Shown here in pieces: positions 3,003 through 49,811 of a stretch of 49,811 nt of DNA; the first letter of the stretch is position 1; the number at the start of each line of letters is the position of its first letter. Position numbers and translations under genes: made by a program. Origin of the DNA: a virus (taxonomy: Duplodnaviria; Heunggongvirae; Uroviricota; Caudoviricetes); the IMG/VR virus record IMGVR_UViG_2579779084_000010; one strand, 5' to 3'. The notes below the pieces were generated by a model that made no database searches, was not told the origin of the DNA, and saw only the letters and a list, made by a program, of their open reading frames with translations.

Positions 3003-4232
3003 TTACGACTTCCGTTGCGCCGTTAACTCGGCAATACGGACGATCACCTGCACCGCTTTTTCCATACCTTCCAGAGTCACAAACTCATGCTTACCATGAT
3101 AGTTGTAACCGCCAGTGAACAGGTTCGGGCACGGTAATCCCATAAACGACAACTGCGCGCCGTCGGTACCACCGCGGATCGGTTTCAGTTCCGGTTCAAT
3201 ATCGCAGTCACGCATCGCCTGCTGGGCGATATCGAGAATATGCGGATGCTCAACCACTTTCTCGCGCATATTGTAGTAACTGTCTTCAATCGCCAATTCA
3301 ATGTAGCAATCAGGATGTAACCCTTTGCCCACTTTTTTGGCGATCTCCATCATTTTACGTTTACGCGCTTCAAACTGTTTACGGTCGAAATCACGGATGA
3401 TGTAGTGCATATCGGCCCGTTCAACGGTGCCTTTCATGCTCGCCAGGTGATAGAAACCTTCATAGCCTTCTGTCATTTCCGGGCTTTCATCCGCCGGAAC
3501 TTCCGCATGAATACGTGCCGCCAGCGACAGCGCATTTACCATCACTCCTTTCGCCGTGCCCGGATGAACATTGTTACCGACAATTTTGATATTGACCGAT
3601 GCGGCGTTGAAGTTTTCAAACTCCAGTTCGCCTACGCCACCACCATCAACAGTGTAAGCCCAGCGGGCATCGAAGGCATCAACATCAAAATGTTTCGCCC
3701 CTTTGCCCACTTCTTCATCCGGGGTAAAGGCGACGCGAATATCACCATGCGGAATGTTTTTCTGTTGCAATACCGCCAGCGCGGTCATGATTTCTGCAAT
3801 ACCTGCTTTGTCATCGGCACCTAACAAGGTTTTACCATCGGTGGTAATCAGCGTCTGACCCAGTAGCTGATGCAGCACCGGGAACATAACCGGTGATAAA
3901 ACTTCATCGCCGATACCCAGCGCAATATCGCCACCGCGATAGTTTTCAACAATTTGCGGATTCACATTTTTGCCGCTGCAATCCGGTGAGGTATCCACAT
4001 GAGAAATAAAGCCAATCGCCGGGATATCGCCAGGGACGTTAGCCGGTAACGTCGCCATCAAAGTGCCCTTCTCACTTAAGGTCACATTGATAAGCCCCAT
4101 CTCTTCGAGCTGCTCTTTCAGCAGATGCAATAACTTCCATTGGCCTTCCGTGCTGGGAACCTGTCTCACCCCTGCTTTTGATTGGGTATCCAGAGACACG
4201 TAGTTCAAAAATCGCTCAAGTAGTTTATCCAT
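3003..4232 (-). CDS. pepT: Peptidase T (tripeptide aminopeptidase, M20 family)
   Basis: Translation from internal Met [33 protein letters not shown]... is recognised as PepT; metal-binding HVDT and GADDKAG motifs present; convergent with roxA. Confidence 0.9.
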
Positions 4233-4481
4233 GTAGTCACCCTCACTTTTTGTGACAACATTATTAAGAAGCAAGAAAAGACAAATATTGCGTCAGGTCA
4301 CTTTTACCCCTGCAAGCGGGAATATTTATCAGCATTACCTTAATGAATATAAAGCTAAGCCAGTAATTCACAACAAAGATTGGCGATTCAAGCGGTTTGC
4401 CGTAGAATTACCGCCCTCATTAAGAGTCACCAAGGTGGTTAACCACAAACCCCGCATCGGTAAGCCATCCGTTGCGTTTAC

Positions 4482-5618
4482 ATGGGACAGAGTAAAAAAT
4501 TGAATAAACAACCGAGTTCGCTTTCACCGCTGGTGCAATTGGCGGGAATTCGCAAATGCTTTGATGGTAAAGAGGTCATTCCCCAGCTGGATCTGACTAT
4601 CAACAATGGCGAGTTCCTCACGCTGCTTGGCCCTTCTGGCTGCGGTAAAACAACCGTTCTTCGCCTGATTGCAGGTCTGGAAACTGTTGATTCCGGACGC
4701 ATCATGTTGGATAACGAGGACATCACCCACGTTCCGGCGGAAAACCGCTATGTGAACACTGTTTTCCAAAGCTACGCACTTTTCCCCCACATGACCGTGT
4801 TCGAAAATGTGGCCTTTGGGTTGCGCATGCAAAAAACCCCCGCTGCTGAAATTACGCCCCGCGTGATGGAAGCCCTGCGGATGGTGCAGCTGGAAACCTT
4901 CGCTCAACGCAAACCGCATCAGCTCTCTGGTGGTCAACAGCAACGCGTCGCCATTGCTCGCGCGGTGGTTAACAAGCCTCGTCTGTTGTTGCTGGATGAG
5001 TCGCTCTCAGCGCTGGATTACAAACTGCGTAAGCAAATGCAGAACGAGCTGAAAGCGTTACAGCGTAAGCTTGGCATTACATTCGTCTTCGTGACTCACG
5101 ATCAGGAAGAAGCACTCACCATGTCAGACAGGATTGTGGTGATGCGCGATGGTCGCATTGAGCAAGACGGCACGCCGCGTGAAATCTACGAAGAGCCGAA
5201 AAACCTGTTTGTTGCCGGGTTCATTGGCGAAATCAATATGTTTAACGCCACTGTCATCGAACGTCTCGACGAGCAGCGCGTACGCGCCAACGTTGAAGGC
5301 CGCGAATGTAATATCTACGTTAACTTCGCCGTTGAACCGGGGCAAAAACTGCATGTTCTGCTGCGCCCGGAAGACTTACGTGTTGAAGAGATTAACGACG
5401 ACAACCACGCTGAAGGGCTGATTGGTTACGTTCGCGAGCGTAACTACAAAGGCATGACGCTGGAGTCGGTTGTTGAACTGGAAAATGGCAAGATGGTGAT
5501 GGTCAGCGAATTCTTTAATGAAGACGATCCTGACTTTGACCACTCTCTCGACCAAAAAATGGCCATTAATTGGGTAGAAAGCTGGGAGGTCGTACTGGCT
5601 GATGAAGAACACAAGTAA
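4482..5618 (+). CDS. potA: Spermidine/putrescine ABC transporter ATP-binding protein PotA
   Basis: 378 aa; Walker [13 protein letters not shown] signature LSGGQQQR, Walker B LLLLDE; C-terminal TOBE-like regulatory domain. Confidence 0.9.
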
Positions 5619-6465
5619 GTTCCAGAATGTAGTGATTGTCACTATTGTCGGTTGGCTTGTGTTGTTTGTCTTTCTGCCCAACCTGATGATCATTGGCACC
5701 AGCTTTTTGACCCGCGACGACGCCAGTTTCGTCAAAATGGTCTTTACGCTGGATAACTACACGCGTCTGCTCGATCCGCTCTATTTTGAAGTGCTATTGC
5801 ACTCGCTGAATATGGCGCTGATCGCCACTCTCGCCTGCCTGGTGCTGGGCTACCCGTTTGCCTGGTTTCTGGCGAAGCTGCCACACAAGGTGCGTCCGCT
5901 GCTGCTGTTTCTGCTGATTGTTCCCTTCTGGACCAACTCACTGATTCGCATCTACGGGCTGAAAATTTTCCTCAGCACCAAAGGCTATCTCAACGAGTTT
6001 TTGCTCTGGCTGGGCGTTATCGACACACCAATCCGTATCATGTTCACGCCCAGTGCGGTGATTATCGGTCTGGTTTACATTCTGCTACCGTTTATGGTGA
6101 TGCCGCTGTACTCCAGTATCGAAAAACTGGATAAGCCGTTGCTTGAGGCGGCGCGCGATCTCGGTGCCAGCAAGTTACAGACTTTTATCCGCATCATTAT
6201 TCCACTGACGATGCCGGGGATTATTGCCGGATGTCTGCTGGTGATGCTGCCAGCGATGGGCCTGTTCTATGTGTCCGACCTGATGGGCGGTGCGAAAAAC
6301 CTGCTGATCGGTAACGTCATCAAGGTACAGTTCCTCAATATTCGTGACTGGCCGTTTGGTGCAGCCACCAGCATTACGCTGACTATCGTAATGGGCCTGA
6401 TGTTGCTGGTTTACTGGCGCGCTTCTCGTCTGCTGAATAAGAAGGTGAGCGAATTAGATGATTAA
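5602..6465 (+). CDS. potB: Spermidine/putrescine ABC transporter permease PotB (C-terminus may be reshaped by the prophage junction)
   Basis: Polytopic membrane protein with ABC permease EAA-like motif (EAARDLGAS); start overlaps the potA stop. No potC follows; prophage DNA begins directly downstream. The true start may be a downstream Met. Confidence 0.85.
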
Positions 6466-6696
6466 TCCTTTATATTCAATGCATTAAGTTTGTTTTTGAG
6501 TGGTTTTGCCGTTTAAGGTAACGGCGTTATAGATCCTATCAAAATCAATCAATTCCGTTCTGGTTTTGGAGAAAGATTTTTCGAGAGCTTCGGTCTTTAA
6601 CTAAAACTGATTGCGTATAATCCCAATCCCCCTCCCCGACTATCTGAATGGTCGGGGAGGCACTTCAAGCACAAAATATCATCCCTGCGCCGTTGA

Positions 6697-6963
6697 TTAC
6701 TCTGCAGGTGAGGTCGGCCACTCAATATCAGGTGCAGTTGATGTATCAACACGATTCAACAATACCCGATATTTATTCCATGCCTCCAGCAACGAGCTTT
6801 CTTCCTCCGTTGCGATTTCCAGATCTACAGCATCCTGCAGTGGCGCAATATACTCACTGAATTCCTGGGTGTAGAACTGTGTGGTGACGGTCTTCCAGCC
6901 ATTCGGCTCCTGCTGTATCGAAGCATACCAGGCTATTTCAATATCGCTATGCTGCGGCAGCAT
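6697..6963 (-). pseudogene. Truncated tail fibre assembly (Tfa) C-terminal fragment
   Basis: 88 aa ORF whose sequence (…[44 protein letters not shown]) parallels the C-terminal half of the intact Tfa at 9474-10049; DNA is roughly 85-90% identical over about 150 bp by eye. Confidence 0.6.
6700..6870. repeat. Direct repeat copy A (tfa 3-prime region)
   Basis: Near-identical to 9485-9655 by eye, for example GGTGCAGTTGATGTATCAACACG versus GTGCAGTTGACGTATCAACACGG and TTTCTTCCTCCGTTGC in both. Confidence 0.6.
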
Positions 6964-7019
6964 TTAACCCCTTGTAATTCATCGCCATAATTGATTTAAT
7001 TCACAAATAAAACTATAAC

Positions 7020-7688
7020 ATGGTGAAATCAATGAAAAAAAACACAGATGATGGGGCTAAAATTTACACACCACTTACCCTAAAGCTTTATGACTGGTGG
7101 GTTTTGGGAGTATCAAATCGGCTTGCATGGGGATGTCCTACAAAGGAACACCTTCTTCCACACTTTCTGGAACATGTAGGTAACAACCATCTGGATATTG
7201 GTGTTGGAACTGGGTTTTACCTTACTCACGTACCTGAGAGTAGTCTGATATCTTTAATGGATTTGAACGAAGCTAGCCTGAACGCGGCATCTACAAGGGC
7301 TGGGGAATCAAAAATTAAACATAAAATTAGCCATGATGTTTTTGAACCTTATCCCGCGGCGTTACATGGTCAATTTGATTCCATTTCCATGTTTTACCTT
7401 CTTCACTGCCTGCCTGGAAATATATCTACAAAAAGCTGTGTAATACGCAATGCGGCGCAGGCCTTAACTGACGATGGAACTCTATACGGAGCCACAATTC
7501 TTGGCGATGGAGTTGTGCACAATAGCTTCGGTCAAAAACTGATGCGCATTTACAATCAGAAAGGCATCTTTTCAAACACAAAAGATTCCGAAGAAGGCTT
7601 AACACATATACTCTCAGAGCATTTCGAGAATGTTAAAACCAAGGTTCAAGGTACTGTAGTAATGTTTTCCGCTTCAAGAAAAAAATAG
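7020..7688 (+). CDS. Class I SAM-dependent methyltransferase (small-molecule/RNA type, not an obvious DNA MTase)
   Basis: 222 aa; glycine-rich SAM-binding motif I LDIGVGTGFY followed by an acidic residue motif (LMDLNE). No DPPY or PCQ DNA-methyltransferase motifs seen. Confidence 0.6.
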   Translation: MVKSMKKNTDDGAKIYTPLTLKLYDWWVLGVSNRLAWGCPTKEHLLPHFLEHVGNNHLDIGVGTGFYLTHVPESSLISLMDLNEASLNAASTRAGESKIKHKISHDVFEPYPAALHGQFDSISMFYLLHCLPGNISTKSCVIRNAAQALTDDGTLYGATILGDGVVHNSFGQKLMRIYNQKGIFSNTKDSEEGLTHILSEHFENVKTKVQGTVVMFSASRKK

Positions 7689-8053
7689 CATCCAACCGCA
7701 GCACGTTCTTGCTTAAGACGTGTCTGCGGTTTTTCAACTATTCAGATACATCACTCCCATCACATTCATTCCTCCGCATCATAGGCATATAGGCTATATC
7801 ACCTTGATATTTTTCTTCTTCAGATAAAAACTGTTATCTATGTATACTTTTAAACCCAATCCGTGTAGAGTCTCTGCATAAGATAGTTTGCAGTTGCCAC
7901 TTCAGCTTGCGCCATAAACCGCCTGATTTTTGCTGCCACCTGTTAGCATTCCTGTATACCTGAAACGACAATGTTTATCTACGAACTTTAAGAACCCCCA
8001 GGATAAAAATTGTCAACTATATCATATATAACACATTACTAATTCGAGGCTAT

Positions 8054-8167
8054 ATGAACAGCATACTGATAATCACTTCGCTCCTTATCATATTCAGCAT
8101 TTTTAGTCATGCGCTAATAAAATTAGGGATTGGCATATCCAATAACCCAGACAAAACCGATGTATAA
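8054..8167 (+). CDS. Small hydrophobic peptide (37 aa, single predicted TM helix)
   Basis: ATG preceded by GAGG about 6 nt upstream; [39 protein letters not shown]-rich island; shorter than the ORF-track cutoff. Confidence 0.25.
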
Positions 8168-8202
8168 GTCAACATATCCTGAATCAGACATACAATATCG
8201 CA

Positions 8203-8469
8203 ATGAAAATCAATAATATTTTAAGGAATATCTTCATGAAATCAAAAGACACCCTAAAGTGGTTCCCTGCGCAGCTTCCTGAAGTAAGAATTATCCTAGG
8301 GGATGCTGTAGTGGAAGTAGCAAAACAGGGAAGACCTATCAATACCAGAACATTGCTTGATTACATTGAAGGAAACATAAAGAAAAAATCATGGCTGGAT
8401 AACAAAGAATTATTACAAACAGCGATATCAGTTCTTAAAGACAACCAAAATTTAAATGGTAAAATGTAA
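8203..8469 (+). CDS. Hypothetical protein in AT-rich island (start may be the internal Met MKSKDTL)
   Basis: 88 aa ORF, lysine-rich, no recognisable motif; GC content of the surrounding 7.7-8.8 kb is clearly below the rest of the window. Confidence 0.3.
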   Translation: MKINNILRNIFMKSKDTLKWFPAQLPEVRIILGDAVVEVAKQGRPINTRTLLDYIEGNIKKKSWLDNKELLQTAISVLKDNQNLNGKM

Positions 8470-8785
8470 TATAATAAACTTACTTTTTTATCATTTTTCC
8501 ACTTTAACAACATTTTGCTCCACTTTTCCACGACCAAACAACTTGAAATCTGGTTAAAATAACACGCAACACTATTCTTCTTCCTTGAGTCCGCCCGGAA
8601 CTCGAAAAACAAACCGAGTTAAAGCCATTTTTCACAAAATCGATTTTGGGTCTCACCAAAATTACGGGGTTGCATACGCATTCGTTTATTTTCGAACGTG
8701 TACATACAAATATGCACAAAAATAATCATAATTATTTTCTGAGATGCATTATGATATGAACACCAATTTCGTATAGAGTCTCACT

Positions 8786-9376
8786 ATGTCTCAAATTTTT
8801 GCTTACTGTCGGATATCAACGCTGGATCAGACCACCGAAAATCAACGCCGGGAAATCGAAAGTGCAGGTTTTAAAATCAAACCTCAGCAAATAATCGAAG
8901 AACACATTAGCGGCTCAGCAGCAACCAGTGAGCGTCCTGGTTTTAACCGGTTGCTTGCTCGCCTGAAATGTGGTGATCAATTGATTGTGACAAAACTGGA
9001 TCGCCTTGGTTGTAATGCAATGGATATCAGGAAAACAGTGGAACAACTGACCGAAACAGGTATCAGAGTGCATTGCTTAGCATTGGGGGGCATTGACCTG
9101 ACCAGTCCAACAGGAAAAATGATGATGCAAGTAATTTCAGCAGTCGCTGAATTTGAACGAGACCTTTTACTTGAACGCACTCATTCCGGGATAGTAAGAG
9201 CCCGCGGCGCAGGGAAACGTTTTGGTCGACCACCTGTGTTAAATGAAGAACAGAAACAGGCGGTATTCGAACGAATTAAGTCAGGTGTAAGTATAAGTGC
9301 CATTGCCCGGGAATTCAAAACCTCGCGGCAAACCATTTTAAGAGCCAAAGCAAAACTTCAGACACCTGACATATAA
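8786..9376 (+). CDS. Serine recombinase of the resolvase/DNA-invertase family
   Basis: 196 aa; N-terminal catalytic serine context YCRISTLDQ, conserved RLGR-like motif ([10 protein letters not shown]), C-terminal HTH ([17 protein letters not shown]). Sits beside the tail fibre genes like Pin/Gin/Cin. Confidence 0.8.
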
Positions 9377-9473
9377 AAAATAATCTCGGTGTGAGATGCT
9401 TTACGTCTTCCAAGCCCCCTTCCTTGCCGTAAATGGAAAGATACATCTAATTATAGAATTTATATGTTTTACC

Positions 9474-10049
9474 CTACGGCAGTGCTGGCCATTCAATATC
9501 CTGTGCAGTTGACGTATCAACACGGTTCAGCAATACCCGATACTTTTTCCATGCTTCCAGCAACGAGATTTCTTCCTCCGTTGCAATTTCCAGATCTGCA
9601 GCATCCTGAAGCGGCGCAATATGCTCACTGGCTACCTGCATCAGGTTGTTTTTTGTTTCTTCCGCCTCCCGGATCCGGAACAGTTTTTCTGCTTCTGCAT
9701 CTTTCACCCAAGCTGTGCCGTTCCACTTCTGAAACTCCCCTTCCGGGGATAACCAGGTGACATGTTCCGGTAGCGGTCCGAGTTCAGAAATAAATAACGC
9801 GTCGCCGGAAGCCACGTCATAAACCGTTTTACCCCGATGATCTTCAACGAGATGCCACGATGCCTCATTACTGTTGAAAACGGCTACAAATCCTGCCGGA
9901 ATATCTGGCGGTGCAATATCGGTACTGTTTGCAGGCAGACCTGTATGAGGTGGAATATATGCGTCACCTTCACCAATAAATTCATTAGTTCCGGCCAGCA
10001 GATTATAAATTTTTATGGTCCGTGGTTGTTCACTCATTCTGAATGCCAT
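9474..10049 (-). CDS. tfa: Tail fibre assembly protein (Tfa)
   Basis: 191 aa directly downstream of the side tail fibre gene; the stf stop region overlaps the tfa start; sequence typical of lambdoid Tfa chaperones. Confidence 0.8.
9485..9655. repeat. Direct repeat copy B (tfa 3-prime region)
   Basis: Partner of 6700-6870; the two copies flank the methyltransferase / AT-rich island / invertase segment. Confidence 0.6.
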
Positions 10050-12994
10050 TATGCAAGCCTCACAATGTAGTTAAATGCGATGTTTTTGACGGTGTTTTCC
10101 GCGTTACCAGCAGCGTTAACGGTGATGGTGTGTCCATGTGAGCCAATCGCAACAGAGTGCGTATGAGCACCAATACCGACAGTATGCGCGTGTGCACCTG
10201 CAGATGCTGCTGTGCCAGACAGTGAGTGGCTATGATTACCATCTGTACTGGTATTAGCTAAACACCCCGTAGACATACCTACTGAGCCTTGTACACCCCA
10301 AGTATTTTGACCTGAGCTTGTATAACCATATTGATAAGTATCTTTAAAAACACTGGGGTTAAATCGACGGCCATCTCTATGGCTGTGATTACCAGCTGCA
10401 TTCGTGCTGCCACTTAAACTATGGGTATGCGCACCAGTGTTATTCGTAGATTTAGTGCCGTAATCAAACGACGATGTGGTTTTCGTCCCCAAATCCGTAC
10501 TGGATGCGCTGGCGCTGTGGGTGTGCGATTTAATGCCGTCCTGTTCCTGAGACAATACGGCACGACCACTGGCGGGCTTGCCCTTAATCGTCCAGCCACG
10601 CATATCAGGAATAACGCCTGACGGATAAGCCGCTGCAAGTTTCGGGTATGCAGATTTGTCAAAAGTCTGCCCCTGCATCAGGGCATAACCAGACGGAACG
10701 GTATCTGATGGCCACGGGATTGGTGCACCGACTGGATAAAACTCTGCAGGAGGATGAGCTGAGGTGTAAAGCTGCGCCCACGGCGACCAGTTTGCGTCGG
10801 TCGTATCCCGTCGTGAACGAATAAATGCCGGAGCATGAGCACCGCTTGTACCACTCCAGCCGATGAGTAACTCACCTTCGCCAACGGCTGTCATCCCTTT
10901 CAGGTGAATGATATTTCCATACGCTGTTGGATATCCGTTGTTATACACCTCGTATAACTCAAGACCTGTTGCCCCCTGCGTATTGTCTGTCAGCGCGGTG
11001 ACCCGACCTTTTGAAGCCAGATTAACTGATGATACTGCTGTTCCACCTGACGGTAACGCCCCGATCTCTGATGCCGTTGGCTTATTTCTGGAGTTATAGT
11101 CCCTTCGCCAGCCAGGTGAATAATCTGTTCCGTGATTAATATAGGTAAACTGGGCGTTAGTTGTTCCGCCACCAGTGGAGGTGGTCGGTGTGGTAATGCG
11201 GATCGTCATCGCTGACTTTATCCCCATTACTTCAATGACAGCTCCTGCGAGATGAATATTACCGCAGCCAGTATCAGTAATGATTTTATTATTGCCATAA
11301 GACCAGGAACCCTTGCACATCCAGTATGGATGGTTAAATGCTCCCTGAGAATCCAGCCACTCGATAAACTGTGCAGTCGTCCAGTTTCCTGTTGTTGTGC
11401 TTACTGACCCACCGAAGGCACGACAGGCACCAATATTTTTCGTAAAGGTGTCTTTGCCAGGGATATCAGCACCGTTCTGGTCTTTCTGCAGACGTTTCTC
11501 TGCATTGTCATAGGCTGCTTTTACTGCCTTTGGCGTTGCCGCCAGCGTTTCAGACGTGCTGTTGGTCGCACTGCTGAGCTGTACTATCCCCTTTTTCGTC
11601 GTGCTCGCATCCTCAAGCGCCACGGCGGATGCAATATCCTCTGCCCGTTTTGCTGCTGTCTCGGCGCGCGTTGCCGCGGATTCCGCCGTACTTTTGCTCT
11701 GAGCTGCCGCCGTCGCACTGCCAGCTGCCTCTGTCGCCTTCGTGGATGCCGTCGTGGCGCTGCCTTTCGCTGCTGACGCCTGTCTGGTCGCCTCATCTTT
11801 TGAAGCAGACGCCGATGATGCCGATGACGCCGCCGAACTGGCGGACGATGCGGCAGCCGTTTTTGAGGATTCTGCGCTGGTTTCCGACGCTTTCGCGTTC
11901 GTCTCGGATGTCTTCGCTGCGGAAGCAGACCTCGCTGCTGCGCTGGCCTGTACAGCGGCTTCGCCAGCATTCGTTGTGGCTGTTGAAGCAGACGATGCGG
12001 CACTTTCTGCCGATTTTCCGGCGGCGGTGGCACTGGCTGAGGCCTGCCCGGCACTTGTTGACGCGGCACTGGCAGATGATGCAGCCGCTGTTTTTGAGCC
12101 TGCCGCAGCTGAGGCGCTCTGTCCCGCTGCCGTTTCAGAAGACCTGGCGTTCGTCTCGGACGTTTTTGCCGCCTTCGCGGAATTTCCTGCCGCCGTTGCC
12201 GAGGAAGCGGCATTACTGGCGCTCGAGGCTGCGCTCGTTTCTGATGATTTCGCTGCCTCTTTTGAGGCCGCCGCATCCCGGGCTGAGGTGGCAGCTTCTG
12301 ACGCTTTCGTGGTCGCGGTGGATGCAGAAGTGGCTGCAGATTTTTGTGACGCTGCCGCATTCGTTTCTGACGTTTTCGCCGCACCGGCACTGGTAGCCGC
12401 CGCGCTTTTTGAGGACTCTGCAGCGGCAGCACTTTTTGATGCTTCAGTAGCCTTTGTTGATGCCGTTCCTGCGCTGGAAGACGCTGACTGAGCCGACGTC
12501 GCGGCCTGCCCGGCTGATGTGCTGGCTGCACGAGCTGAGCCTGCAGCATCAGTCGCATGGGTTGCCGCCTCACGGGCTGATGTGCCGGCATCGCTGGCTG
12601 ACTTCTTCGCGGCTGCCGTGTTCTGTGCCACTGCGGACGCGTTACGCGCCACCTCTTCCACCATCAGTTCAAAGCGGCGCAGTGCCTCCGGACGGGCATC
12701 ATCCTCCGTCATGGCACCGAGAAAATCATTCAGCGTACCCGGTTGTGAGTCTTCATACACGGTGATGGTCCCGGCATGCGATGGCGGGAAGCCTTCCACC
12801 AACAGAATAACGCTGTACTGACCGTACTCAACGTCCATGCTGTAACGCCCTGCTTCATCCGGATTTTCAGATGCCACCGTGTTCACCACCACCGTGGTAC
12901 TGTTACGTTTCGCTTTCAGCTGGATTGTGCAGTTCTGTACCGGTTTTCCTGTGCCGTCTTTCAGTACACCTGAAATCTTTACTGCCATATTCAC
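10049..12994 (-). CDS. stf: Side tail fibre protein (Stf) with long Ala/Ser/Thr-rich repeat region and His-rich C-terminal domain
   Basis: 981 aa; N-terminal region like lambdoid Stf; about 350 aa of low-complexity A/S/T repeats; C-terminal HxH motifs (GAHTHS, GNHSHS, GAHAHT, GSHGHT). Confidence 0.8.
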
Positions 12995-36033: not shown

Positions 36034-36429
36034 CTAACCTCGCATGTCAAAGCCAGATTTCTGAAAATCTCTGTAGACTTCCGGATTGTTGAAGGCCGGA
36101 AATTTGGCTTTATGAGCTGCGGACTTTATCGCTTCGCAATAGGCTTTATCACCGTTACTGGTAGATATTTTTAACGCCGTGCCATCCTGAGAGAATTCCA
36201 TATGCAACCTGCATTTTTTCCCTTTCCAGTTATGCGGCTCATCAAGTTTGGCATTAATTGCAGCTCTGATTCCCCGCGCTTGCGCCCCCCATTCATCCTG
36301 ATCATCCCAGCGTCCTGAACTGCAACTACCTGTAGCAGTAGTTTTGTGGCAATCTGAAGGGTGTAAAGGTGTGCATCCCGCAACAAAACCGACCCAAAAA
36401 GTCAACATGACGATTTTCTTTAATCCCAC
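36034..36429 (-). CDS. Lipoprotein with TolA C-terminal (domain III)-like fold, copy 1
   Basis: 131 aa; signal peptide with lipobox-like FVAGC; C-terminal GKKCRLHMEFSQDGTALKISTSNGDKAYCEAIKSAAHKAKFPAFNNPEVYRDF follows the TolA domain III pattern C-x-L-R ... G-D-x-x-x-C ... P-x-P ... VY..F. Confidence 0.6.
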   Translation of the reverse strand: MGLKKIVMLTFWVGFVAGCTPLHPSDCHKTTATGSCSSGRWDDQDEWGAQARGIRAAINAKLDEPHNWKGKKCRLHMEFSQDGTALKISTSNGDKAYCEAIKSAAHKAKFPAFNNPEVYRDFQKSGFDMRG

Positions 36430-36579
36430 TTCTTGCTCCTCAATCCATTAAAATCTCAGCAATAGTAGTTGTTACGTCCGCCACTGGCTCAGAGCTGACT
36501 ATCCGCTAAATTTAGCTCAGTGCCGTAGTTGTGTCAGAACAAACCTAAGCCGAAACCGTTTATTACAAAACAATAAATA

Positions 36580-37008
36580 TCAGGGTTTAAAATCCAGCAC
36601 CCCATTTTGAAATACTTTATATACTTCCGGCGAAGGGGGGGCAGGTATATCAGCATTCTTTATCGCATTCATCGCTTCACGACATAAATCGAGGTCTCCA
36701 CTTTCTCTTTTAACCTCCAGTAGAAGGCCATTCGGGGCCATATGCATTCTCAGTGTACACTCTTTTCCTGAATACTTACTCGCATCCCCGAACTGTTTTT
36801 CGATGGCGCTCTTGATTTGATGGGCATACAGACGGATATCCTCACTAACATCAGAAGTACGTTCAGATGAACTCACATACTGTGTCTCTATTGCTTTATC
36901 GGAGTAATATGATGTACGGTCATGATAATTTGTCGATACAGCATCAGTGCACCCGATAATAATCCCACTAATAATCAACGTAAGAATTGATGCGCTACGA
37001 AAACCCAT
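36580..37008 (-). CDS. Lipoprotein with TolA C-terminal (domain III)-like fold, copy 2
   Basis: 142 aa; lipobox IIGC; C-terminus GKECTLRMHMAPNGLLLEVKRESGDLDLCREAMNAIKNADIPAPPSPEVYKVFQNGVLDFKP closely parallels the C-terminus of E. coli TolA as I recall it. Confidence 0.6.
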   Translation of the reverse strand: MGFRSASILTLIISGIIIGCTDAVSTNYHDRTSYYSDKAIETQYVSSSERTSDVSEDIRLYAHQIKSAIEKQFGDASKYSGKECTLRMHMAPNGLLLEVKRESGDLDLCREAMNAIKNADIPAPPSPEVYKVFQNGVLDFKP

Positions 37009-37541
37009 TTTTCCTCACATATGTCATATAGTAAAGGATTATATATACCGTTGTTTTGGACGCTCAAACAGCGAATCAGATCAAATAAAACGCACATTTG
37101 TTAACATTTACACAAAGTCTGCGTGGGATATTCTGAAAGAATATCCATAATGTGGAGAGAATCTATTGAAGTGCATGGTGCCGGGTGCCTCCCGGTGAAT
37201 TCAGTACCAGCACCTGAATCCGCGATTATCCCATATACCTACTCGCTGATTGCCCCTCCGCACAGGGGGATTCACCATGCCAGTTTCTTTTAACAAACTC
37301 CCCGCAAACCAGACAACAGTCAACCGCCTGAATTGTGAAGTATTTAAAAATTTCTCCCGCTAACTGATACCCGGCTAACAGTCCGGCGTTTTCTTTTTCA
37401 GCAACGGGAAAGCAATAACCACCACACCCGCCACCAGCACACCGTCAGCCAGCACTGACATTATCCGGCTGCTGCAATGCCATTCACAAAAACAGTAAGC
37501 AATAACTTTTTACCGTAACAGGTGATAATCCAGATATGTAT

Positions 37542-37895
37542 CTACCCCAGATGAGTAATCCGAAGTTCATCCATACCACAGGTCCTGGCTATTCTGTTGT
37601 ACTCCTGAACAAGAGCAAATAATTCTGAATTAGCAACCATGAACTCATCGCAAACCCTCTGTATAGCATCACTATTCAGAATAATAACGTCTCTTCCCGA
37701 AAGACGATCAGGAGTACAAAACAAAACTGTCAAACGGCTGAAGGCCTTTGCTCGTGCTGCATTGACTATATCAATACGCTGCCTAAGGATGAAACACCCC
37801 GACGCCTCATCAATATTCACTCTACCCACACCATATGAATGATAAATATTTAATGCTGAAAAAACCATTAGACGGTATAACAAACACTCAATCAA
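37542..37895 (-). CDS. Hypothetical protein (cargo gene downstream of Q and tRNAs)
   Basis: 117 aa ORF in an AT-rich stretch; no recognisable motif. Confidence 0.3.
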   Translation of the reverse strand: MIECLLYRLMVFSALNIYHSYGVGRVNIDEASGCFILRQRIDIVNAARAKAFSRLTVLFCTPDRLSGRDVIILNSDAIQRVCDEFMVANSELFALVQEYNRIARTCGMDELRITHLG

Positions 37896-38005: not shown

Positions 38006-38082
38006 TGGCGCGCTGTACTGGATTCGAACCAGTGACCGATTGCTTAGAAGGCAATTGCTCTGTCCGGCTGAGCTAACAACGC
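38006..38082 (-). tRNA. tRNA-Arg (anticodon UCU)
   Basis: Cloverleaf folded by hand: acceptor GCGTTGT/ACAGCGC, D-arm GCTC..GAGC, anticodon stem ATTGC/GCAAT with loop CTTCTAA, T-arm ACTGG-TTCGAAT-CCAGT, 3-prime GCCA. Confidence 0.8.
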
Positions 38083-38182
38083 TGAATACCGATAATGGAC
38101 CGCCATCGGGGACCCGCCCCCGCACCAACAACCCTGTTATCGCGTCGTCTGCTCTTCCTGATAAGCTAATGGCGGTTTGTGA

Positions 38183-38258
38183 TGGTGGCCCTTGCTGGAT
38201 TTGAACCAGCGACCTGGCGATTATGAGTCGCTCGCTCTCACCACTGAGCTAAAGGGCC
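38183..38258 (-). tRNA. tRNA with CAU anticodon (Ile2/lysidine-type by similarity to E. coli ileX, or Met)
   Basis: GGCCCTTTAGCTCAGTGGTGAGAGCGAGCGACTCATAATCGCCAGGTCGCTGGTTCAAATCCAGCAAGGGCCACCA on the minus strand; anticodon loop CTCATAA. Confidence 0.8.
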
Positions 38259-41470: not shown

Positions 41471-41626
41471 TTACTCCTCAGGTTCGTAAGCTGTGAAGAC
41501 AGCGACCTCCGTCTGGCCGGTTCGGATTCGTACCTCGCAGAGGTCTTTCCTCGTTACCAGTGCCGTCACTATGACGGTTAAACAGATGACGATCAGGGCG
41601 ATTAACATCGCCTTTTGCTGCTTCAT
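41471..41626 (-). CDS. hok: Hok-family type I toxin (small membrane-depolarising peptide)
   Basis: 51 aa MKQQKAMLIALIVICLTVIVTALVTRKDLCEVRIRTGQTEVAVFTAYEPEE; strong SD AAGGAG; the ORF-track entry (70 aa) is an in-frame upstream extension. Confidence 0.8.
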   Translation of the reverse strand: MKQQKAMLIALIVICLTVIVTALVTRKDLCEVRIRTGQTEVAVFTAYEPEE

Positions 41627-42091
41627 AGCCTGCTTCTCCTTGCCTTTCGGCACGTAAGAGGCTAACCTACATGTGTCTAGCATGAAATTGGCCTCAGATT
41701 AATGTTAAGCGTCTTGCAGGACGCGTAATGTTAACTGGGGCTTTTCTCTATCTGCCGTTGGTGTTCATGCCCGAGGCAGATAGCCTCAAGCACCCGCAGC
41801 CATTCTACTTAACTACCGTTACCTCGCCAATGTGAAATCAGTCAGAAAGGCGATCCATAAGAACAATAGCAAGACAATAAATCGCCATTACAGCCGTAAT
41901 AGCCAGCGCACATTTGAGAACCAGCACCACAACCTCCTGTATTGGACGTACACCAGTCCTGATGAATATGAGGCTGTCTCGTCAGTGATTCAATACAACT
42001 ATTGGGTATAGTTTCTCTGATTTTTTCTGTGGAAATGGGGCTCAACCACTAGTCATTTAATACGCAAAGTCCGATACAAGCTAACCTTCTA

Positions 42092-42175: not shown

Positions 42176-42820
42176 TTAACCACAGATGATATTGAAACGT
42201 TCTCCGGAAATCTTGACCATAATGTCAGACAGTTCGCTGACGGCATGGGCTTCAGATGATCCCAGAGCGTCAGGCTGAACAGCTATTACCGAAGCTCCAC
42301 TTGCCAGCCCTGCTTTTATACCCGCAGATGCATCCTCAAATACCACGCATTCACCAGGCTCAAGGCCCAAAGCCAAAGCTGCTTTGATGTAACCCTCGGG
42401 ACTTGGTTTTCCCGTCATTACATCTTCTGCACACACCATTACTCTGGGTAAGGGGAGATTAGCCGCTTTCATCCTGTTTTCGGCAAGCATTCTGCCTGCA
42501 GAAGTGACAAGTGCCCAGCTATCCGGTGGCAGTTTTGATAAGAGTGCAGCGGCCCCTTTTACTTCAGTAACGCCTTCTGTCGTGTTGATTTCAACCTCTT
42601 CGAGTGAGGCCGCGATTTTATTGGTTTTCTCACCTGCACCAATAAAATGCGTTAGTGTATCAATCGTTTGCCGCCCGTGTGCGTAAGCAATCACAGCCTG
42701 AGAATCAAGACCGTATTCTGCACAAAAATCTCTCCAGACGCTTTCCACTACGGCTGTTGAATCAACCAGCGTACCGTCCATATCGAATAAAAAACCCTTA
42801 GCGTTGAATATCATTGCCAT
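42176..42820 (-). CDS. HAD-superfamily hydrolase (subfamily IA phosphatase/phosphomutase-like)
   Basis: 214 aa; motif I FDMDGTLVDS (nucleophile Asp and Asp+2), motif II-like TSAG, motif III/IV K...EDASAG. Confidence 0.75.
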   Translation of the reverse strand: MAMIFNAKGFLFDMDGTLVDSTAVVESVWRDFCAEYGLDSQAVIAYAHGRQTIDTLTHFIGAGEKTNKIAASLEEVEINTTEGVTEVKGAAALLSKLPPDSWALVTSAGRMLAENRMKAANLPLPRVMVCAEDVMTGKPSPEGYIKAALALGLEPGECVVFEDASAGIKAGLASGASVIAVQPDALGSSEAHAVSELSDIMVKISGERFNIICG

Positions 42821-42843
42821 TCCTTAATGGTTGCAGAAGAAAG

Positions 42844-43482
42844 TTAATCAAACCATGTTTTTTCATCACCTTTCGCTACTCTCAGGCTGACAGCAATCTG
42901 CTCAGGCACAATTCTTGAAAGCGACAATTCAGGCAGGTCGTTGACATCAAAAAAATCAGCATCGAGTGACTCATGGCTGATTGACAGGCTGCCACCTACT
43001 TCTTCACAGAGAAAAATCAGCTTGTAAACATGCCAGGGTAAAGGCGGATGGCCGTGAAGATTACGATCCCAAACTCCCAATAGTTTAGTCACTCTGACTT
43101 TTAATCCGGTTTCTTCTTCGACCTCTCGACGCACAGCTTCAGAAGGTGTATCTCCAACATCTGCCCATCCGCCAGGAAGACTCCATAATCCATCTGCAGC
43201 CTCTTTCACCATCAGAATACGATTATTACGCAGGATAAACGCACGCACATCTGTTTTGGGCGTCGCGTAACCCGTTTCCGATACATGAAACAAATCATTG
43301 CGGCTAATATCAAACTGCGAACTCAGCAGTCCAGCGGCAATTTCACGCAAGGCTTCATAGCGTTCCTTGTCAAAGACGTCTTTTGAATAGGTCAGGCCTG
43401 ACTGCGCGAGGGCCTTTAGTCTCTGGGCAACAAAAATAAGCTTTTCTTGGGTCAACACTTCAGACATGTTTTTCATCTTCAT
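42844..43482 (-). CDS. NUDIX hydrolase with N-terminal accessory domain
   Basis: 212 aa; Nudix box GGWADVGDTPSEAVRREVEEETG matches GX5EX7REUXEEXGU; about 85-aa N-terminal domain before the catalytic fold. Confidence 0.75.
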   Translation of the reverse strand: MKMKNMSEVLTQEKLIFVAQRLKALAQSGLTYSKDVFDKERYEALREIAAGLLSSQFDISRNDLFHVSETGYATPKTDVRAFILRNNRILMVKEAADGLWSLPGGWADVGDTPSEAVRREVEEETGLKVRVTKLLGVWDRNLHGHPPLPWHVYKLIFLCEEVGGSLSISHESLDADFFDVNDLPELSLSRIVPEQIAVSLRVAKGDEKTWFD

Positions 43483-45879: not shown

Positions 45880-46287
45880 ATGGATACAAGAACCCTAGGC
45901 CAGCGAGTTCTGGCGCGACGAAAAGAATTACGCTTAACACAACGAGAAGCTGCGCGCCTCGCTGGAGTTGCTCACGTCACAATTTCACAATGGGAAAGAG
46001 ACGAAACCCAGCCAGTCGGAAAACGATTGTTTGCTTTAGCGGATGCTCTGAAGTGCTCACCTACATGGCTAATGTTTGGTGATGAAGACAAGGCACCAGT
46101 GCCTGCACAAGAACTTCATGTGGAAACAGAGCTAACTCCCAACCACAAAGAATTGATCGAATTATTCGATGCTCTTCCATCTTCCGAGCAGGAAGCCTTG
46201 CTGTCTGAAATGCGCGCAAGAGTAGAAAACTTCAACAAACTCTTCGAAGAAATGCTTAAAGCGCGTAAAAATAAATCAATAAAATAA
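45880..46287 (+). CDS. dicA: DicA-like XRE-family HTH repressor (CI-analog without peptidase domain)
   Basis: 135 aa; N-terminal HTH (LTQREAARLAGVAHVTISQWE); C-terminal region resembles DicA as I recall it (NFNKLFEEMLKARK). Confidence 0.75.
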   Translation: MDTRTLGQRVLARRKELRLTQREAARLAGVAHVTISQWERDETQPVGKRLFALADALKCSPTWLMFGDEDKAPVPAQELHVETELTPNHKELIELFDALPSSEQEALLSEMRARVENFNKLFEEMLKARKNKSIK

Positions 46288-46323
46288 CATTCTTTTCAAG
46301 TGATTAGTTGCGCTCACTCTTTT

Positions 46324-46342
46324 TGTTAGACTAACCTAACAA
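46324..46342. promoter_or_regulatory. Operator-like palindrome TTGTTAG-N5-CTAACAA upstream of ydfA
   Basis: Same half-site as the 45811-45830 palindrome; a third related dyad GTTAGATTATTCTAA sits at 46361-46377. Confidence 0.5.
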
Positions 46343-46455
46343 AAAACACTTGCCTATCATGTTAGATTATTCTAAATTAATTTCCATCAAGACACCGCAC
46401 GGTGTTCTCAGCAAACAGTTCCGCTACCCCGGCGTTAAGGGGAAATGAGGTCAGC

Positions 46456-46611
46456 ATGGATACTATCGATCTTGGCAACAGCGAATCTCTGGTATGTGGC
46501 GTGTTCCCCAACCAGGACGGTACGTTCACCGCGATGACGTATACCAAAAGCAAAACGTTTAAAACCGAAAATGGTGCCCGTCGCTGGCTGGAAAGAAACT
46601 CAGGTGAGTGA
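46456..46611 (+). CDS. ydfA: YdfA-like small protein
   Basis: 51 aa MDTIDLGNSESLVCGVFPNQDGTFTAMTYTKSKTFKTENGARRWLERNSGE with SD GGAAATGAGG; first gene of the dicB-type operon. Confidence 0.55.
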   Translation: MDTIDLGNSESLVCGVFPNQDGTFTAMTYTKSKTFKTENGARRWLERNSGE

Positions 46612-46612
46612 T

Positions 46613-47188
46613 ATGGATTTCGACACAATCATGGAAAAGGCTTACGAAGAATACTTCGAAGGTCTTGCCGAAGGCGAAGAAGCTCTCAGCTTCAGTGAGT
46701 TTAAACAGGCACTCAGAATAAGAATGTGCTCTCACAATGACGCTGAGCACAAATATGAGAAGCAAAATCAGACCGCAGAAAATTTTGTTCTGGAACCCGG
46801 AGAAACGCTTTTCAAAATTCCCGTTACGTGCCCCATTTGCGGTTTTACATCAGAAGAACTTGACGAACCCTGTAACAATCAGGAAACAACCAAGTATGTC
46901 GAAGATGATACCGAGTGCGCACGAAGAACGATTATATCCACGAGTCCAAACTCCAGGACCAATAAATCTCACTTTGAGAGGGTGATTAATCCACTCCCCC
47001 AAACCAATAAAAAAGATGCCGGAGGACAAAAAACCCAATGGAACAACGGGATATCTGTCAAAAAAAGACGTTCCATTAAAGACAAACAACGCAGCGCCAA
47101 CAACTGTAAGCGCTTTATACCAGTAATCAATTTTCATGTTCTTAAGCGGATTTATTGGTGGTTGCGACATTGCTTAATGAATCCTTAA
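46613..47188 (+). CDS. YdfB/YdfC-like protein, apparently fused, with CPICG...C zinc-ribbon-like motif
   Basis: 192 aa from MDFDTIMEKAYEEYFEGLAEGEE; basic, low-complexity C-terminal tail may reflect a frame change rather than real protein. Confidence 0.4.
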   Translation: MDFDTIMEKAYEEYFEGLAEGEEALSFSEFKQALRIRMCSHNDAEHKYEKQNQTAENFVLEPGETLFKIPVTCPICGFTSEELDEPCNNQETTKYVEDDTECARRTIISTSPNSRTNKSHFERVINPLPQTNKKDAGGQKTQWNNGISVKKRRSIKDKQRSANNCKRFIPVINFHVLKRIYWWLRHCLMNP

Positions 47189-47439
47189 AACTGTGGTGAT
47201 TTTAAGGATACCACCTCGCCTGACGTGGTTAAAAGCAGGCACACAACACGAAAGCGCACGGCGAAGTTCGTCTCACTGTACGGTGTCGGTAAATTTAATT
47301 CGACCGTGCGCTTCCGGTTGTGGCACTCCGCGAAATGGCGCGGCGGTAAGTATGGCGGGGGTATTCCTTCCCCGTTGAGGACACCGGGTTGTCAGGTTGA
47401 CCATACGCCTGAGTGACAACTCCGCTACAACAACCCATG

Positions 47440-47495
47440 TTGATTACCTTTTGGCGGGTATTCGTTTTGTTTTTCCCGTGATACCCGCCCCTTTT
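47440..47495 (+). ncRNA. dicF: DicF-like small RNA (3-prime terminator hairpin and downstream region resemble K-12 dicF)
   Basis: GGCGGGTAT...ATACCCGCC hairpin followed by CCTTTTAAAGTGAATTTTGTGATGCGGTGAATGCGGCTCAGCGCACGCGGAAC, closely resembling my recollection of the dicF 3-prime region; 5-prime part diverged; boundaries approximate. Confidence 0.4.
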
Positions 47496-47672
47496 AAAGT
47501 GAATTTTGTGATGCGGTGAATGCGGCTCAGCGCACGCGGAACAGTTAAAACAAGCGGTCTTTTACTTGCGTAACAGACATCAACTAACAATCCGGCGTTA
47601 ATGGTTTACTGGTTAACGTCACCTGGAGGCACCAGGCGCCGCATCACAAAATTCATTGTTGAGGACGCGATA

Positions 47673-47861
47673 ATGGAAACGTTATTACCAAACGTTAATA
47701 CGTCTGAAGGTTGTTTTGAAATTGGTGTCACTATCAGTAACCCAGTATTTACTGAAGATGCCATTAACAAGAGAAAACAAGAACGGGAGCTATTAAATAA
47801 AATATGCATTGTTTCAATGCTGGCCCGTTTACGCCTGATGCAAAAAGGATGCTGGCAATGA
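47673..47861 (+). CDS. dicB: Cell division inhibitor DicB
   Basis: 62 aa METLLPNVNTSEGCFEIGVTISNPVFTEDAINKRKQERELLNKICIVSMLARLRLMQKGCWQ; SD GAGGA upstream; the ORF-track start at 47601 is an upstream extension. Confidence 0.75.
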   Translation: METLLPNVNTSEGCFEIGVTISNPVFTEDAINKRKQERELLNKICIVSMLARLRLMQKGCWQ

Positions 47862-48061
47862 ATACTACATTTGCACTTGTTCTGACGGTTTTTCTTGTTT
47901 CCGGTGAACCGGTTGACATGGTTACTGGCGTATACGGCTCAATGAAAGAATGCATGGTTGCCGCAGCGGAACAGAAAATTCCCGGTAACTGTTATCCGGT
48001 CGATAAAGTTATTCACATGGATAATAACGAAATCCCGGCAGGACTTAAAACAGCACCGTAA
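47858..48061 (+). CDS. ydfD: YdfD-like small membrane (lysis-associated) protein
   Basis: 67 aa MNTTFALVLTVFLVSGEPVDMVTGVYGSMKECMVAAAEQKIPGNCYPVDKVIHMDNNEIPAGLKTAP; start overlaps the dicB stop (ATGA). Confidence 0.6.
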   Translation: MNTTFALVLTVFLVSGEPVDMVTGVYGSMKECMVAAAEQKIPGNCYPVDKVIHMDNNEIPAGLKTAP

Positions 48062-48141
48062 TTAATATCCGGTTTCATTTTTATATGCCAGCAATGGCAG
48101 GGATTTGTTCACCCTTAAATCTGTAATGAGGTTAAAACAAC

Positions 48142-49811
48142 ATGAGTAAAGTCTTTATTTGCGCCGCCATTCCGGACGAACAGGCAATAAAGGAAGAAGG
48201 TGCAGTCGCTGTAGCCACTGCCATTGAAGCTGGCGACGAACGCCGCGCCCGTGCCAAATTTACCTGGCAATTCCTGGAGCAATATCCGGCTGCTCAGGAC
48301 TGCGCTTATAAATTTCTTGTTTGCGAGGATAAACCCGGTATACCCCGCCCTGCCCTCGATTCCTGGGATGCTGAATATATGCAGGAAAACCGCTGGGATG
48401 AGGAGTCAGCTTCCTTTGTCCCGGTTGAGACTGAATCAGATCCGATGAACGTCACTTTTGACAAGCTGGCCCCTGAAGTGCAGAACGCTGTCATGGTTAA
48501 GTTCGACACATGTGAAAACATCACCGTTGATATGGTGATTAGTGCACAGGAACTGTTGCAGGAAGACATGGCAACATTCGACGGACATATCGTTGAAGCG
48601 TTGATGAAAATGCCAGAAGTTAACGCCATGTATCCAGAACTTAAGTTGCATGCCATCGGGTGGGTTAAGCATAAATGTAAGCCTGGAGCTAAATGGCCCG
48701 AAATTCAGGCAGAGATGCGCATCTGGAAAAAACGTCGCGAAGGTGAACGCAAGGAAACCGGAAAATACACGTCTGCTGTTGATCTCGCCCGCGCCAGAGT
48801 CAACCGACAGCACACTGAAAACTCAGCAGAAAATATCCCCCCTGTCACTGCAGTCATTCGTCGCGAATATAAGCAGACATGGAAAACACTGGATGATGAA
48901 CTGGCCTACGCTCTGTGGCCTGGTGACATTGATGCCGGAAACATTGACGGCAGCATCCATCGCTGGGCAAAAAATGAAGTTATCAACAACGACCGCGAAG
49001 ACTGGAAGCGTATCTCAGCATCAATGCGCAAACAGCCTGATGCCCTTCGCTACGACCGCCAGACTATTTTTGGCCTTGTCCGTGAGCGTCCGATCGACAT
49101 TCACAAAGACCCTGTGGCACTGAACAAATACATTACTGAATACCTGACTACAAAGGGCGTGTTTGAAGATGAAGGAACAAATCAGATCGCAACTGATACT
49201 CTCTCGTCGCCAGTACCAGAAACTGATGCAGTGGAAACGGCAATTCCGGACAACGAAAAAACCGAATGCAAAGTGGAAGTCGAACCATCTGTAGAGCGTG
49301 AGGGGCCGTTCTACTTCCTCTTCACCGACAAGGATGGTGAAAAATACGGTCGCGCAAACAAACTTTCTGGTCTGGATAAGGCACTGGCTGCCGGGGCTAC
49401 TGAAATCACGAAAGAAGAATATTTCGTCCGCAAAAACAGTACATACTCAGGTTCACAACAAAATACTGGTGCATCTGACACGACCGCACAACCAGGGCCG
49501 GTAAAAGTTACCGCTGACGAAGTAAACAACATTATGCAGGCAGCCAATATCAGCCAGCCTGACGCCGATGAACTGCTTGCAGTATCACGTGGTGAATTTG
49601 TTGCAGGAATTAGCGATCCGAATGATCCGAAATGGGTGAAGGGGATGGAAACCCGCGATTCTGTGAACCAGAACCAGCAAGAAACGGAACAGAACGGCCA
49701 GAAAGCGGAACAAAACAGCCCAAATGCGTTACAAAATGAGCCAGAAACGAAACAACCTGAACCAGTAGTGCAACAGGAACCGGAAAAGATCTGCACCGCC
49801 TGCGGTCAGAC
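48142..49811 (+). CDS. RecE-like (exonuclease VIII family) protein, 5-prime partial view: ORF runs off the right edge
   Basis: Open frame of at least 556 codons, not in the ORF track because it has no stop in the window; segment DELLAVSRGEFVAGISDPNDPKWVKGMETRD resembles a RecE internal segment; N-terminus differs from K-12 RecE. Confidence 0.55.
   Translation, partial: MSKVFICAAIPDEQAIKEEGAVAVATAIEAGDERRARAKFTWQFLEQYPAAQDCAYKFLVCEDKPGIPRPALDSWDAEYMQENRWDEESASFVPVETESDPMNVTFDKLAPEVQNAVMVKFDTCENITVDMVISAQELLQEDMATFDGHIVEALMKMPEVNAMYPELKLHAIGWVKHKCKPGAKWPEIQAEMRIWKKRREGERKETGKYTSAVDLARARVNRQHTENSAENIPPVTAVIRREYKQTWKTLDDELAYALWPGDIDAGNIDGSIHRWAKNEVINNDREDWKRISASMRKQPDALRYDRQTIFGLVRERPIDIHKDPVALNKYITEYLTTKGVFEDEGTNQIATDTLSSPVPETDAVETAIPDNEKTECKVEVEPSVEREGPFYFLFTDKDGEKYGRANKLSGLDKALAAGATEITKEEYFVRKNSTYSGSQQNTGASDTTAQPGPVKVTADEVNNIMQAANISQPDADELLAVSRGEFVAGISDPNDPKWVKGMETRDSVNQNQQETEQNGQKAEQNSPNALQNEPETKQPEPVVQQEPEKICTACGQ

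Follow-up and report, generated by a model that had tools for sequence, protein, structure and literature searches.

The closest described counterparts of the locus reported here are the attachment sites of phage lambda and of the phages that enter icd, together with the prophages already known from the potABCD operon of Escherichia coli. In lambda, the target lies between gal and bio, and the attP and attL sites combine a short common core with an arm, away from int, that carries arm-type and IHF sites; three further arm-type sites lie on the P′ arm. Phages 21 and e14 integrate into icd, each carrying a substitute 3′ end of the target gene. The junction of potB and potC has itself been recorded as a target several times: Sp6 of strain Sakai lies between potC and potB (PMC8190617), Stx2a and Stx2d phages of O113:H21 strains occupy the potC/potB site (PMC9453080), prophage J of O104:H4 lies at potB/potC (PMC3486847), and potC is listed as a Stx-phage site in a review (PMC8065619).

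The window analysed in this work, the whole 49,811-nucleotide stretch of IMG/VR record IMGVR_UViG_2579779084_000010, carries a prophage at this junction. Positions 6434–6600 are very probably an attL, formed when a temperate lambdoid phage integrated site-specifically within the final potB codons. The insertion site is a documented and frequently occupied one, and as such is already known. Like Sp6, the O113:H21 phages and prophage J, the present prophage has the same target and the same orientation, with potB at its tail-fibre end, and relatives with this attL share the same type of integrase, with an arm-binding domain, next to potC. Unlike them, its body is a different mosaic, in which the late genes resemble those of prophages at the prfC site and the early genes those of Qin-site prophages. 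No stx gene was noted among the open reading frames examined in the window.

Chromosomal identity ends in the last codons of potB

The left part of the window is bacterial, with pepT and roxA preceding potA and potB. The potA gene (4482–5618, + strand), the first gene of the split potABCD operon, is intact in the list of open reading frames (378 amino acids) and shares 99% DNA identity with its counterparts in K-12 and TD225-C4. It is followed head to tail by the contiguous potB (5602–6465, + strand; Pfam BPD_transp_1), so that the description of the two genes in the earlier note as intact and contiguous agrees with both the reading frames and the alignments. In BLAST comparisons, identity with the K-12 pepT-potA-potB region spans 3008–6447, with none past 6447, and potC and potD have no match anywhere in the window; the DNA that follows potB is phage DNA in place of potC, as had been claimed. 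In the genomes in which the site is unoccupied, the match to window positions 6250–6700 stops at query position 198, which corresponds to 6447, and a three-way alignment places the breakpoint at 6447/6448, directly after ...AATAAGAAGGTG and 12 nucleotides ahead of the native potB stop. Identity with the unoccupied chromosome thus ends abruptly at the core described below.

The potB of the window is therefore a hybrid gene, bacterial to 6447 and phage-derived from 6448 to 6465. Its product is identical to K-12 PotB over 282 of 282 consecutive residues up to ...RLLNKKV (V282), after which the two diverge: K-12 PotB ends in VELE*, while the protein encoded here ends in VSELDD*, its last five codons and stop (6448–6465) being encoded by phage DNA. 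This is what the earlier note had suspected in proposing that the final PotB codons might be supplied by the phage. The arrangement resembles that of phage 21 and e14 in icd in that integration falls in the 3′ end of a coding sequence, the phage brings replacement codons, and a near full-length protein results. It differs from icd in that only three residues are replaced, by five unrelated ones, and in that downstream operon genes are displaced at potB/potC, which is not the case at icd. For annotation, the boundary at 6447/6448 defines the left end of the prophage, accounts for the variant PotB C terminus (SELDD) found in RefSeq, and flags potABCD as split.

The common core and the phage arm

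Alignment to an uninterrupted potBC sequence, which had been suggested as a check, located both the crossover and the sequence shared by the recombining partners. Comparison of the window attL with the attB of K-12 and the attR of TD225-C4 delimits a common core, TGAATAAGAAGGTG, at 6434–6447, and identifies it as the site of strand exchange; integration at the junction of the potB 3′ end and the potC 5′ end, inferred earlier from gene order, is thus borne out, with the crossover inside these 14 bp. The core, TGAATAA(G/A)AAGGTG, is common to the K-12 attB, the window attL and the attR of TD225-C4 and O157 strains. Its flanks are reciprocal: in attL the sequence left of the core is bacterial and that to its right is phage, and in attR the reverse holds. 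The attB reads ...CTGAATAAGAAGGTG|GAACTCGAATGATCGG, the potB stop TGA overlapping the potC ATG; the window attL reads ...CTGAATAAGAAGGTG|AGCGAATTAGATGATTAATCC, and the attR reads ...CCTTATGAATAAAAAGGTG|GAACTCGAATGATCGG, that is, TGAATAAAAAGGTG followed by bacterial GAACTCGAATG, the start of potC. The single polymorphic core position is G, the bacterial base, in attL and A, the phage base, in attR. In a diverged attL from O145 the match to attB extends only as far as ...AAGG, so the exchange most likely takes place within its 3′ portion. The last codons of potB overlap the core, and so does the potC Shine–Dalgarno sequence (AAGGTGG). Because the latter lies inside the core, the translation start of potC remains intact at attR; in related lysogens the potC ribosome-binding site and ATG are indeed retained at attR.

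The phage arm of attL, the equivalent of the lambda P arm, extends over 6448–6600 and contains three elements. An inverted-repeat scan found a partner of the core, CCTTTATATTCA (CTTTATATTCAA), at 6467–6478; an IHF-like site, recognized by sequence likeness, lies at about 6541–6554 (AAAATCAATCAATT; AAAATCAAnCAnTT); and a match to an arm-type Int-site motif, TTTTGGAGA (TTTTGGAGAA), lies at 6564–6572. All three are kept in the otherwise diverged O145 attL. We propose TTTTGGRGA as a candidate arm-type Int-binding motif. It occurs once in the arm (at 6564), and its two matches in the whole window, against 1.08 expected, are by themselves not above chance. At the attR of the O157 strain NE1092-2, on the stretch running from int to the core, three copies stand in tandem with a spacing of 11–13 bp, a number reached in 0 of 200 shuffles. 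The integrase adjoining potC in relatives is annotated with an arm DNA-binding domain.

In these respects the site is built like that of lambda: a short common core is joined to an arm, away from int, that carries an IHF-like site and a candidate arm-type repeat, the three tandem copies of this candidate on the int side mirror the three P′ arm sites, and relatives encode an integrase with an arm-binding domain. It is unlike lambda in that its target lies inside an operon and in that its core and arm motifs have different sequences, the Int and IHF sites here being predictions from sequence. The inverted repeat 6434–6445/6467–6478 was also considered as a pair of core-type sites flanking the overlap, and was rejected: its spacing of 21 bp is at odds with the lambda model, and the crossover falls within or beside its left arm.

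A hairpin beside the junction

The earlier note had drawn attention to a strong hairpin in the junction region, at 6633–6662. The hairpin exists, but its coordinates are 6631–6660, 2 nucleotides off those given. It is GC-rich, with a perfect stem of 10 bp (CCTCCCCGAC/GTCGGGGAGG) that extends to 13 bp in + strand RNA through one G–U pair, closed by a loop of 4 nucleotides, with a folding energy of −24.2 kcal/mol. The + strand fold has a z-score of −4.98, and 0 of 200 shuffles were as good; the − strand forms 10 bp with z = −2.39. No terminator-like site was detected on either strand within 6200–7200: there is no T-run, and the stem is followed by CACTTCAAGC. An Rfam search returned no family for the hairpin, the sole nearby match, IS009, being the coding remnant of tfa. 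Its sequence is 100% conserved in the Stx1a phage EH2115 and in phage cdtI, while the flanks vary, and it is missing from the diverged attL of the O145 strain RM8995, where the other att elements remain. Wherever it is present the hairpin is invariant, a property that leaves no room for a test of covariation.

There is no sign that the hairpin belongs to the recombination site. Most likely, though on rather slender grounds, it is a transcript-ending or insulating structure, acting on an uncertain strand between the rightward potAB or int-sense transcription and the leftward transcription of the tail-fibre genes. A more specific proposal is that it is the counterpart of lambda tI/sib, a structure downstream of int across attP that ends or destabilizes int transcripts in the circular phage; in the prophage, integration would then have carried the hairpin to the opposite end, and it would cap the potAB transcript there instead. 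The geometry agrees with this proposal, as the hairpin stands on the arm opposite int at a distance of 187–216 nucleotides from the centre of the core, and the lambda tI hairpin lies at about 146–196 nucleotides, just past the P1 arm site; in both cases a hairpin stands across attP from int, some 150–200 nucleotides from the core. The longer and more exceptional fold on the int-sense (+) strand, and the conservation in EH2115 and cdtI between variable flanks, also speak for it. Yet the hairpin lacks the U-tract that follows lambda tI, its 13 bp are short for an RNase III substrate, it is not conserved with the att site in relatives, being absent from the O145 attL that keeps the core partner and the IHF-like and arm-type sites, and in cdtI the hairpin block lies in the cargo region, 3.3 kb from int. 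We consider the identification with tI/sib doubtful.

The cdtI block is of some interest in its own right. In phage cdtI (NC_009514, 23696–23889 plus about 50 nucleotides upstream), a relic of an att region lies between cdtA and cif, in which the core-proximal GAAGGTGAGCGTATTAGATGATTAATCCTTTTTTATTCAA adjoins the hairpin block directly, the arm-type site having been deleted. This similarity suggests that the cdtI cargo region may have captured what was once an end of a potC-type phage. An interpretation of the hairpin as no more than the 3′ flank of tfa was considered after the cdtI match, and was set aside; the core-proximal att relic in cdtI leaves the association ambiguous.

The prophage body and its cargo

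From 6448 to 49811 the window is occupied by the lambdoid prophage body (43,364 bp), the window end cutting its exonuclease gene. The body holds Lom, J, tail, head, terminase and lysis genes, a Q-like antiterminator region, a NUDIX/HAD cassette, immunity genes, tRNAs and dicB. Next to the phage arm lies a remnant of a tail fibre assembly gene, tfa (6697–6963, − strand), already recognized as such in the earlier note. It is a C-terminal part matching positions 77–131 of the 131-position Pfam profile Caudo_TAP, and the equivalent stretch of TD225-C4 is annotated in RefSeq as a partial tail fibre assembly protein. The remnant marks a joint in the mosaic of the prophage. Complete late genes begin with an intact tfa (9474–10049, − strand; Caudo_TAP) and a side tail fibre gene (10049–12994, − strand; Pfam phage_tail_N and Collar), which together form the block 9474–12994.

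Decay next to attL, seen in the tfa remnants at 6697–6867 and about 7743–7862, raises the question of a dead scar, in which the int end and potCD have been deleted, or the prophage is a remnant that cannot excise, and the strain lacks PotC and PotD. Compound and deleted prophages at potC have been described in O157 (PMC10925052). However, late, lysis, regulatory and early genes are all represented in the 43 kb of the window, in what looks like a complete set, and potC is retained in 5,425 of the 5,426 complete genomes searched, which makes a dead scar highly improbable.

Several features of the body may be recorded beside this. A serine DNA invertase of the Pin/Gin type (8786–9376, + strand; Pfam Resolvase and HTH_7) adjoins the tail fibre genes, and the two C-terminal tfa remnants lie outward of the invertase and the intact tfa and stf; together they look like a decayed region for tail-fibre switching by host-range inversion. 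The tfa fragments coincide with mosaic joints common to prophages elsewhere (DLP12/appY, prfC), and the block 6717–9900 is also found beside appY/ompT in strain S10, the top match among 283 genomes (complete genomes whose best match covered at least 80% of the query 6300–9900). Between the tfa remnants sits a cargo gene for a class I SAM-dependent methyltransferase (7020–7688, + strand; Pfam Methyltransf_12/23/25 and RefSeq annotation), and in TD225-C4 the stretch 6448–7729 is joined to a myovirus prophage. The early region contains a NUDIX and HAD hydrolase gene pair (42176–43482, − strand). The identical NUDIX protein, accompanied by its HAD partner, is also encoded in P2-like prophages, with the tail fibre assembly gene on one side and the tail sheath gene on the other, so that the pair behaves as a mobile two-gene cassette. 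Further cargo typical of lambdoid phages lies at 36034–37008 (− strand), 37119–37309, 38006–38258 and 41621–41795, and comprises two adjacent open reading frames with TolA C-terminal domains, a match to the sRNA STnc100, a tRNA-Arg(tct), a tRNA with anticodon cat, and hok/sok (a match to sok RNA).

The right end and the integrase

The window ends within the exonuclease gene (48142–49811, + strand), of which the 5′ two-thirds, 556 of about 823 codons, form an open frame to the last nucleotide; the position of int and potC beyond 49811 is inferred from relatives. Two of these with the same attL, TD225-C4 and E203449, have the order exonuclease-xis-int-attR-potC-potD about 43 kb away from it, in keeping with the prediction that potCD would be separated from the potA promoter by a distance of this size. 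In YL3, of which the attR end was examined, the same arrangement of exonuclease, potC-type int and potC is present. In E500002, E400634 and strain A2, the same exonuclease leads to an rspB-type int. Homology between the two kinds of module extends through the exonuclease gene to its 3′ end and gives way only at xis, about 1.2 kb past the window. Because the exonuclease segment is common to both, the type of the following integrase cannot be read from the window, and an assignment from the last 2.6 kb was rejected on this ground.

This raises a second possibility, that the attL is genuine but the prophage is a hybrid, formed by homologous recombination between a prophage at the potB/potC site and an oppositely oriented one at the Qin (rspB) site, with a large inversion. 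An rspB-type xis-int and then rspB would follow past 49811, and potC would lie hundreds of kilobases away. From the K-12 gene order, prophages at the potC and Qin sites presumably have opposite orientations, so that recombination between the two would reverse the stretch of chromosome separating them; the gene orientations within the window would be the same under either arrangement. For the early region (36.5–47.2 kb), the nearest counterparts are prophages at the rspB site. Every far-reaching contig that carries the rare 205-residue open reading frame at 46571–47188 ends in a 426-residue integrase beside rspB, as do most loci with the immunity or NUDIX/HAD genes of the window, and the best complete-genome matches to the last 2.6 kb (47231–49811; dicB, DUF1482 and exonuclease), at 99.0–99.1% identity, are rspB-site prophages. 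Inversions between a potC prophage and another prophage have been reported in O157 (PMC10925052). On the other hand, both module types have the exonuclease segment in common up to its 3′ end, so that these similarities do not discriminate; the same 2.6 kb are 98.4% identical to the potC-site prophage of YL3, and the final 411 nucleotides are 100% identical to that of TD225-C4. Moreover, the att/int module of the potC type occurs on widely differing phage bodies, that of TD225-C4 being a myovirus, which shows that ordinary mosaic exchange is common. By our estimate, inversions between prophages affect a minority of genomes. The hybrid with a large inversion therefore seems improbable.

In all likelihood, then, the window derives from an ordinary lysogen of a mosaic phage, a reading favoured by the promiscuity of the potC att/int module across phage bodies and by the regular structure of the relatives that were checked. 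In such a lysogen, xis, a potC-type int of about 372 residues, attR and potC would follow about 2.4–3.2 kb beyond the window. The regular end would read core ATGAATAAAAAGGTG and then potC GAACTCGAATG, with ...CCTTATGAATAAAAAGGTGGAACTCGAATG ahead of potC-potD, and the attP circle would join ...AAAAAGGTG to window position 6448 onward. Adding 2.4–3.2 kb by synteny to the 43,364 bp in the window, the prophage would measure about 45.7–46.6 kb.

The mosaic structure of this end is visible at 47231, where a sharp joint occurs: 46200–47230 is 100% identical to a contig of an rspB-site prophage, and the sequence to the right shares 99–100% identity with the prophages of E500002, YL3 and TD225-C4. The contigs with the rare 205-residue frame diverge from the window after 47231. 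Over 6 kb at the right end of the window, the best match among complete E. coli genomes does not exceed 96%. At the site itself, 207 genomes carry a DUF2335 gene and a small open reading frame between int and the int-side attR arm (37062–37710 in TD225-C4), the pair facing away from potC; most other occupied sites, for example those of O157 strains and YL3, are without it.

Integration and the fate of potCD

The sequence elements described above are consistent with the following mechanism. The recombinase would be a tyrosine integrase of the lambda family with an arm-binding domain, and the core TGAATAA(A)AAGGTG would be common to the phage attP and the chromosome. Exchange of strands within it would join bacterial potB to the phage arm opposite int, providing PotB with a substitute tail of five codons and a stop, and attR would retain the core-borne Shine–Dalgarno sequence and the ATG for potC. 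Integration thereby splits the potABCD operon physically: potAB would stay on the potA promoter, and potCD would come to lie behind a prophage of roughly 46 kb, directly downstream of int and in the same orientation.

In relatives, a spacer of 166 bp separates int from potCD, which lie downstream of it and are read in the same direction. Consensus scans of this 166-bp spacer, in its O157-type form, revealed neither a promoter-like nor a terminator-like site on the potC strand, and in the TD225-C4 variant with the DUF2335 pair only weak consensus promoter matches were present. Since the int–potC spacer has no promoter-like site, we infer that read-through from int or other prophage transcripts would be the simplest source of potCD expression in lysogens, if these genes are expressed. 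It is also conceivable, though we regard it as unlikely, that prophage transcription drives potCD in lysogens in such a way that PotAB and PotCD depend on unlinked promoters. This is proposed because int reads into potC across 166 bp with no terminator-like site, and because the hairpin, by which int transcripts may be ended in the free phage, has moved to the other end of the prophage. If true, it would couple spermidine uptake to the regulatory state of the prophage in roughly 30% of E. coli strains.

The PotABCD spermidine importer requires all four subunits, and potCD are cut off from the potA promoter in about 30% of complete E. coli genomes. The high frequency of occupancy argues that the cost of an occupied site is small. 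Since E. coli can synthesize polyamines itself and possesses further importers, a small cost is plausible. In the literature that we searched, no paper gave measurements of potCD expression or of spermidine uptake in lysogens of this kind. Expression of potCD in them is a modest and testable question, and one that would not surprise specialists.

Distribution of the site

An uninterrupted potB–potC junction, scored by a criterion of 80% coverage, is present in 3,800 of 5,426 complete E. coli genomes; in about 30% the junction is occupied or otherwise broken. The same attL, including the hairpin, occurs at 97–99.8% identity in 915 of the 5,426, a recurrence of the junction far beyond chance, and a 2.1-kb stretch running through the methyltransferase gene is common to 817 genomes. 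In a second lineage, found in O145 and O80 strains, similarity to this attL reaches only 32 bp beyond the crossover, and PotB acquires the tail ATEIDN*.

The window also touches another site of this kind. Its first 1,659 positions (1–1659) include a 416-residue tyrosine integrase of the P4 type (open reading frame 258–1508, − strand; Arm-DNA-bind_3 and Phage_integrase), which takes the place immediately upstream of roxA that phoQ occupies in K-12 and TD225-C4. The left edge of the window seems to fall within a second integrative element, inserted at phoQ/roxA, which is listed as an integration site for O157 (PMC8190617).
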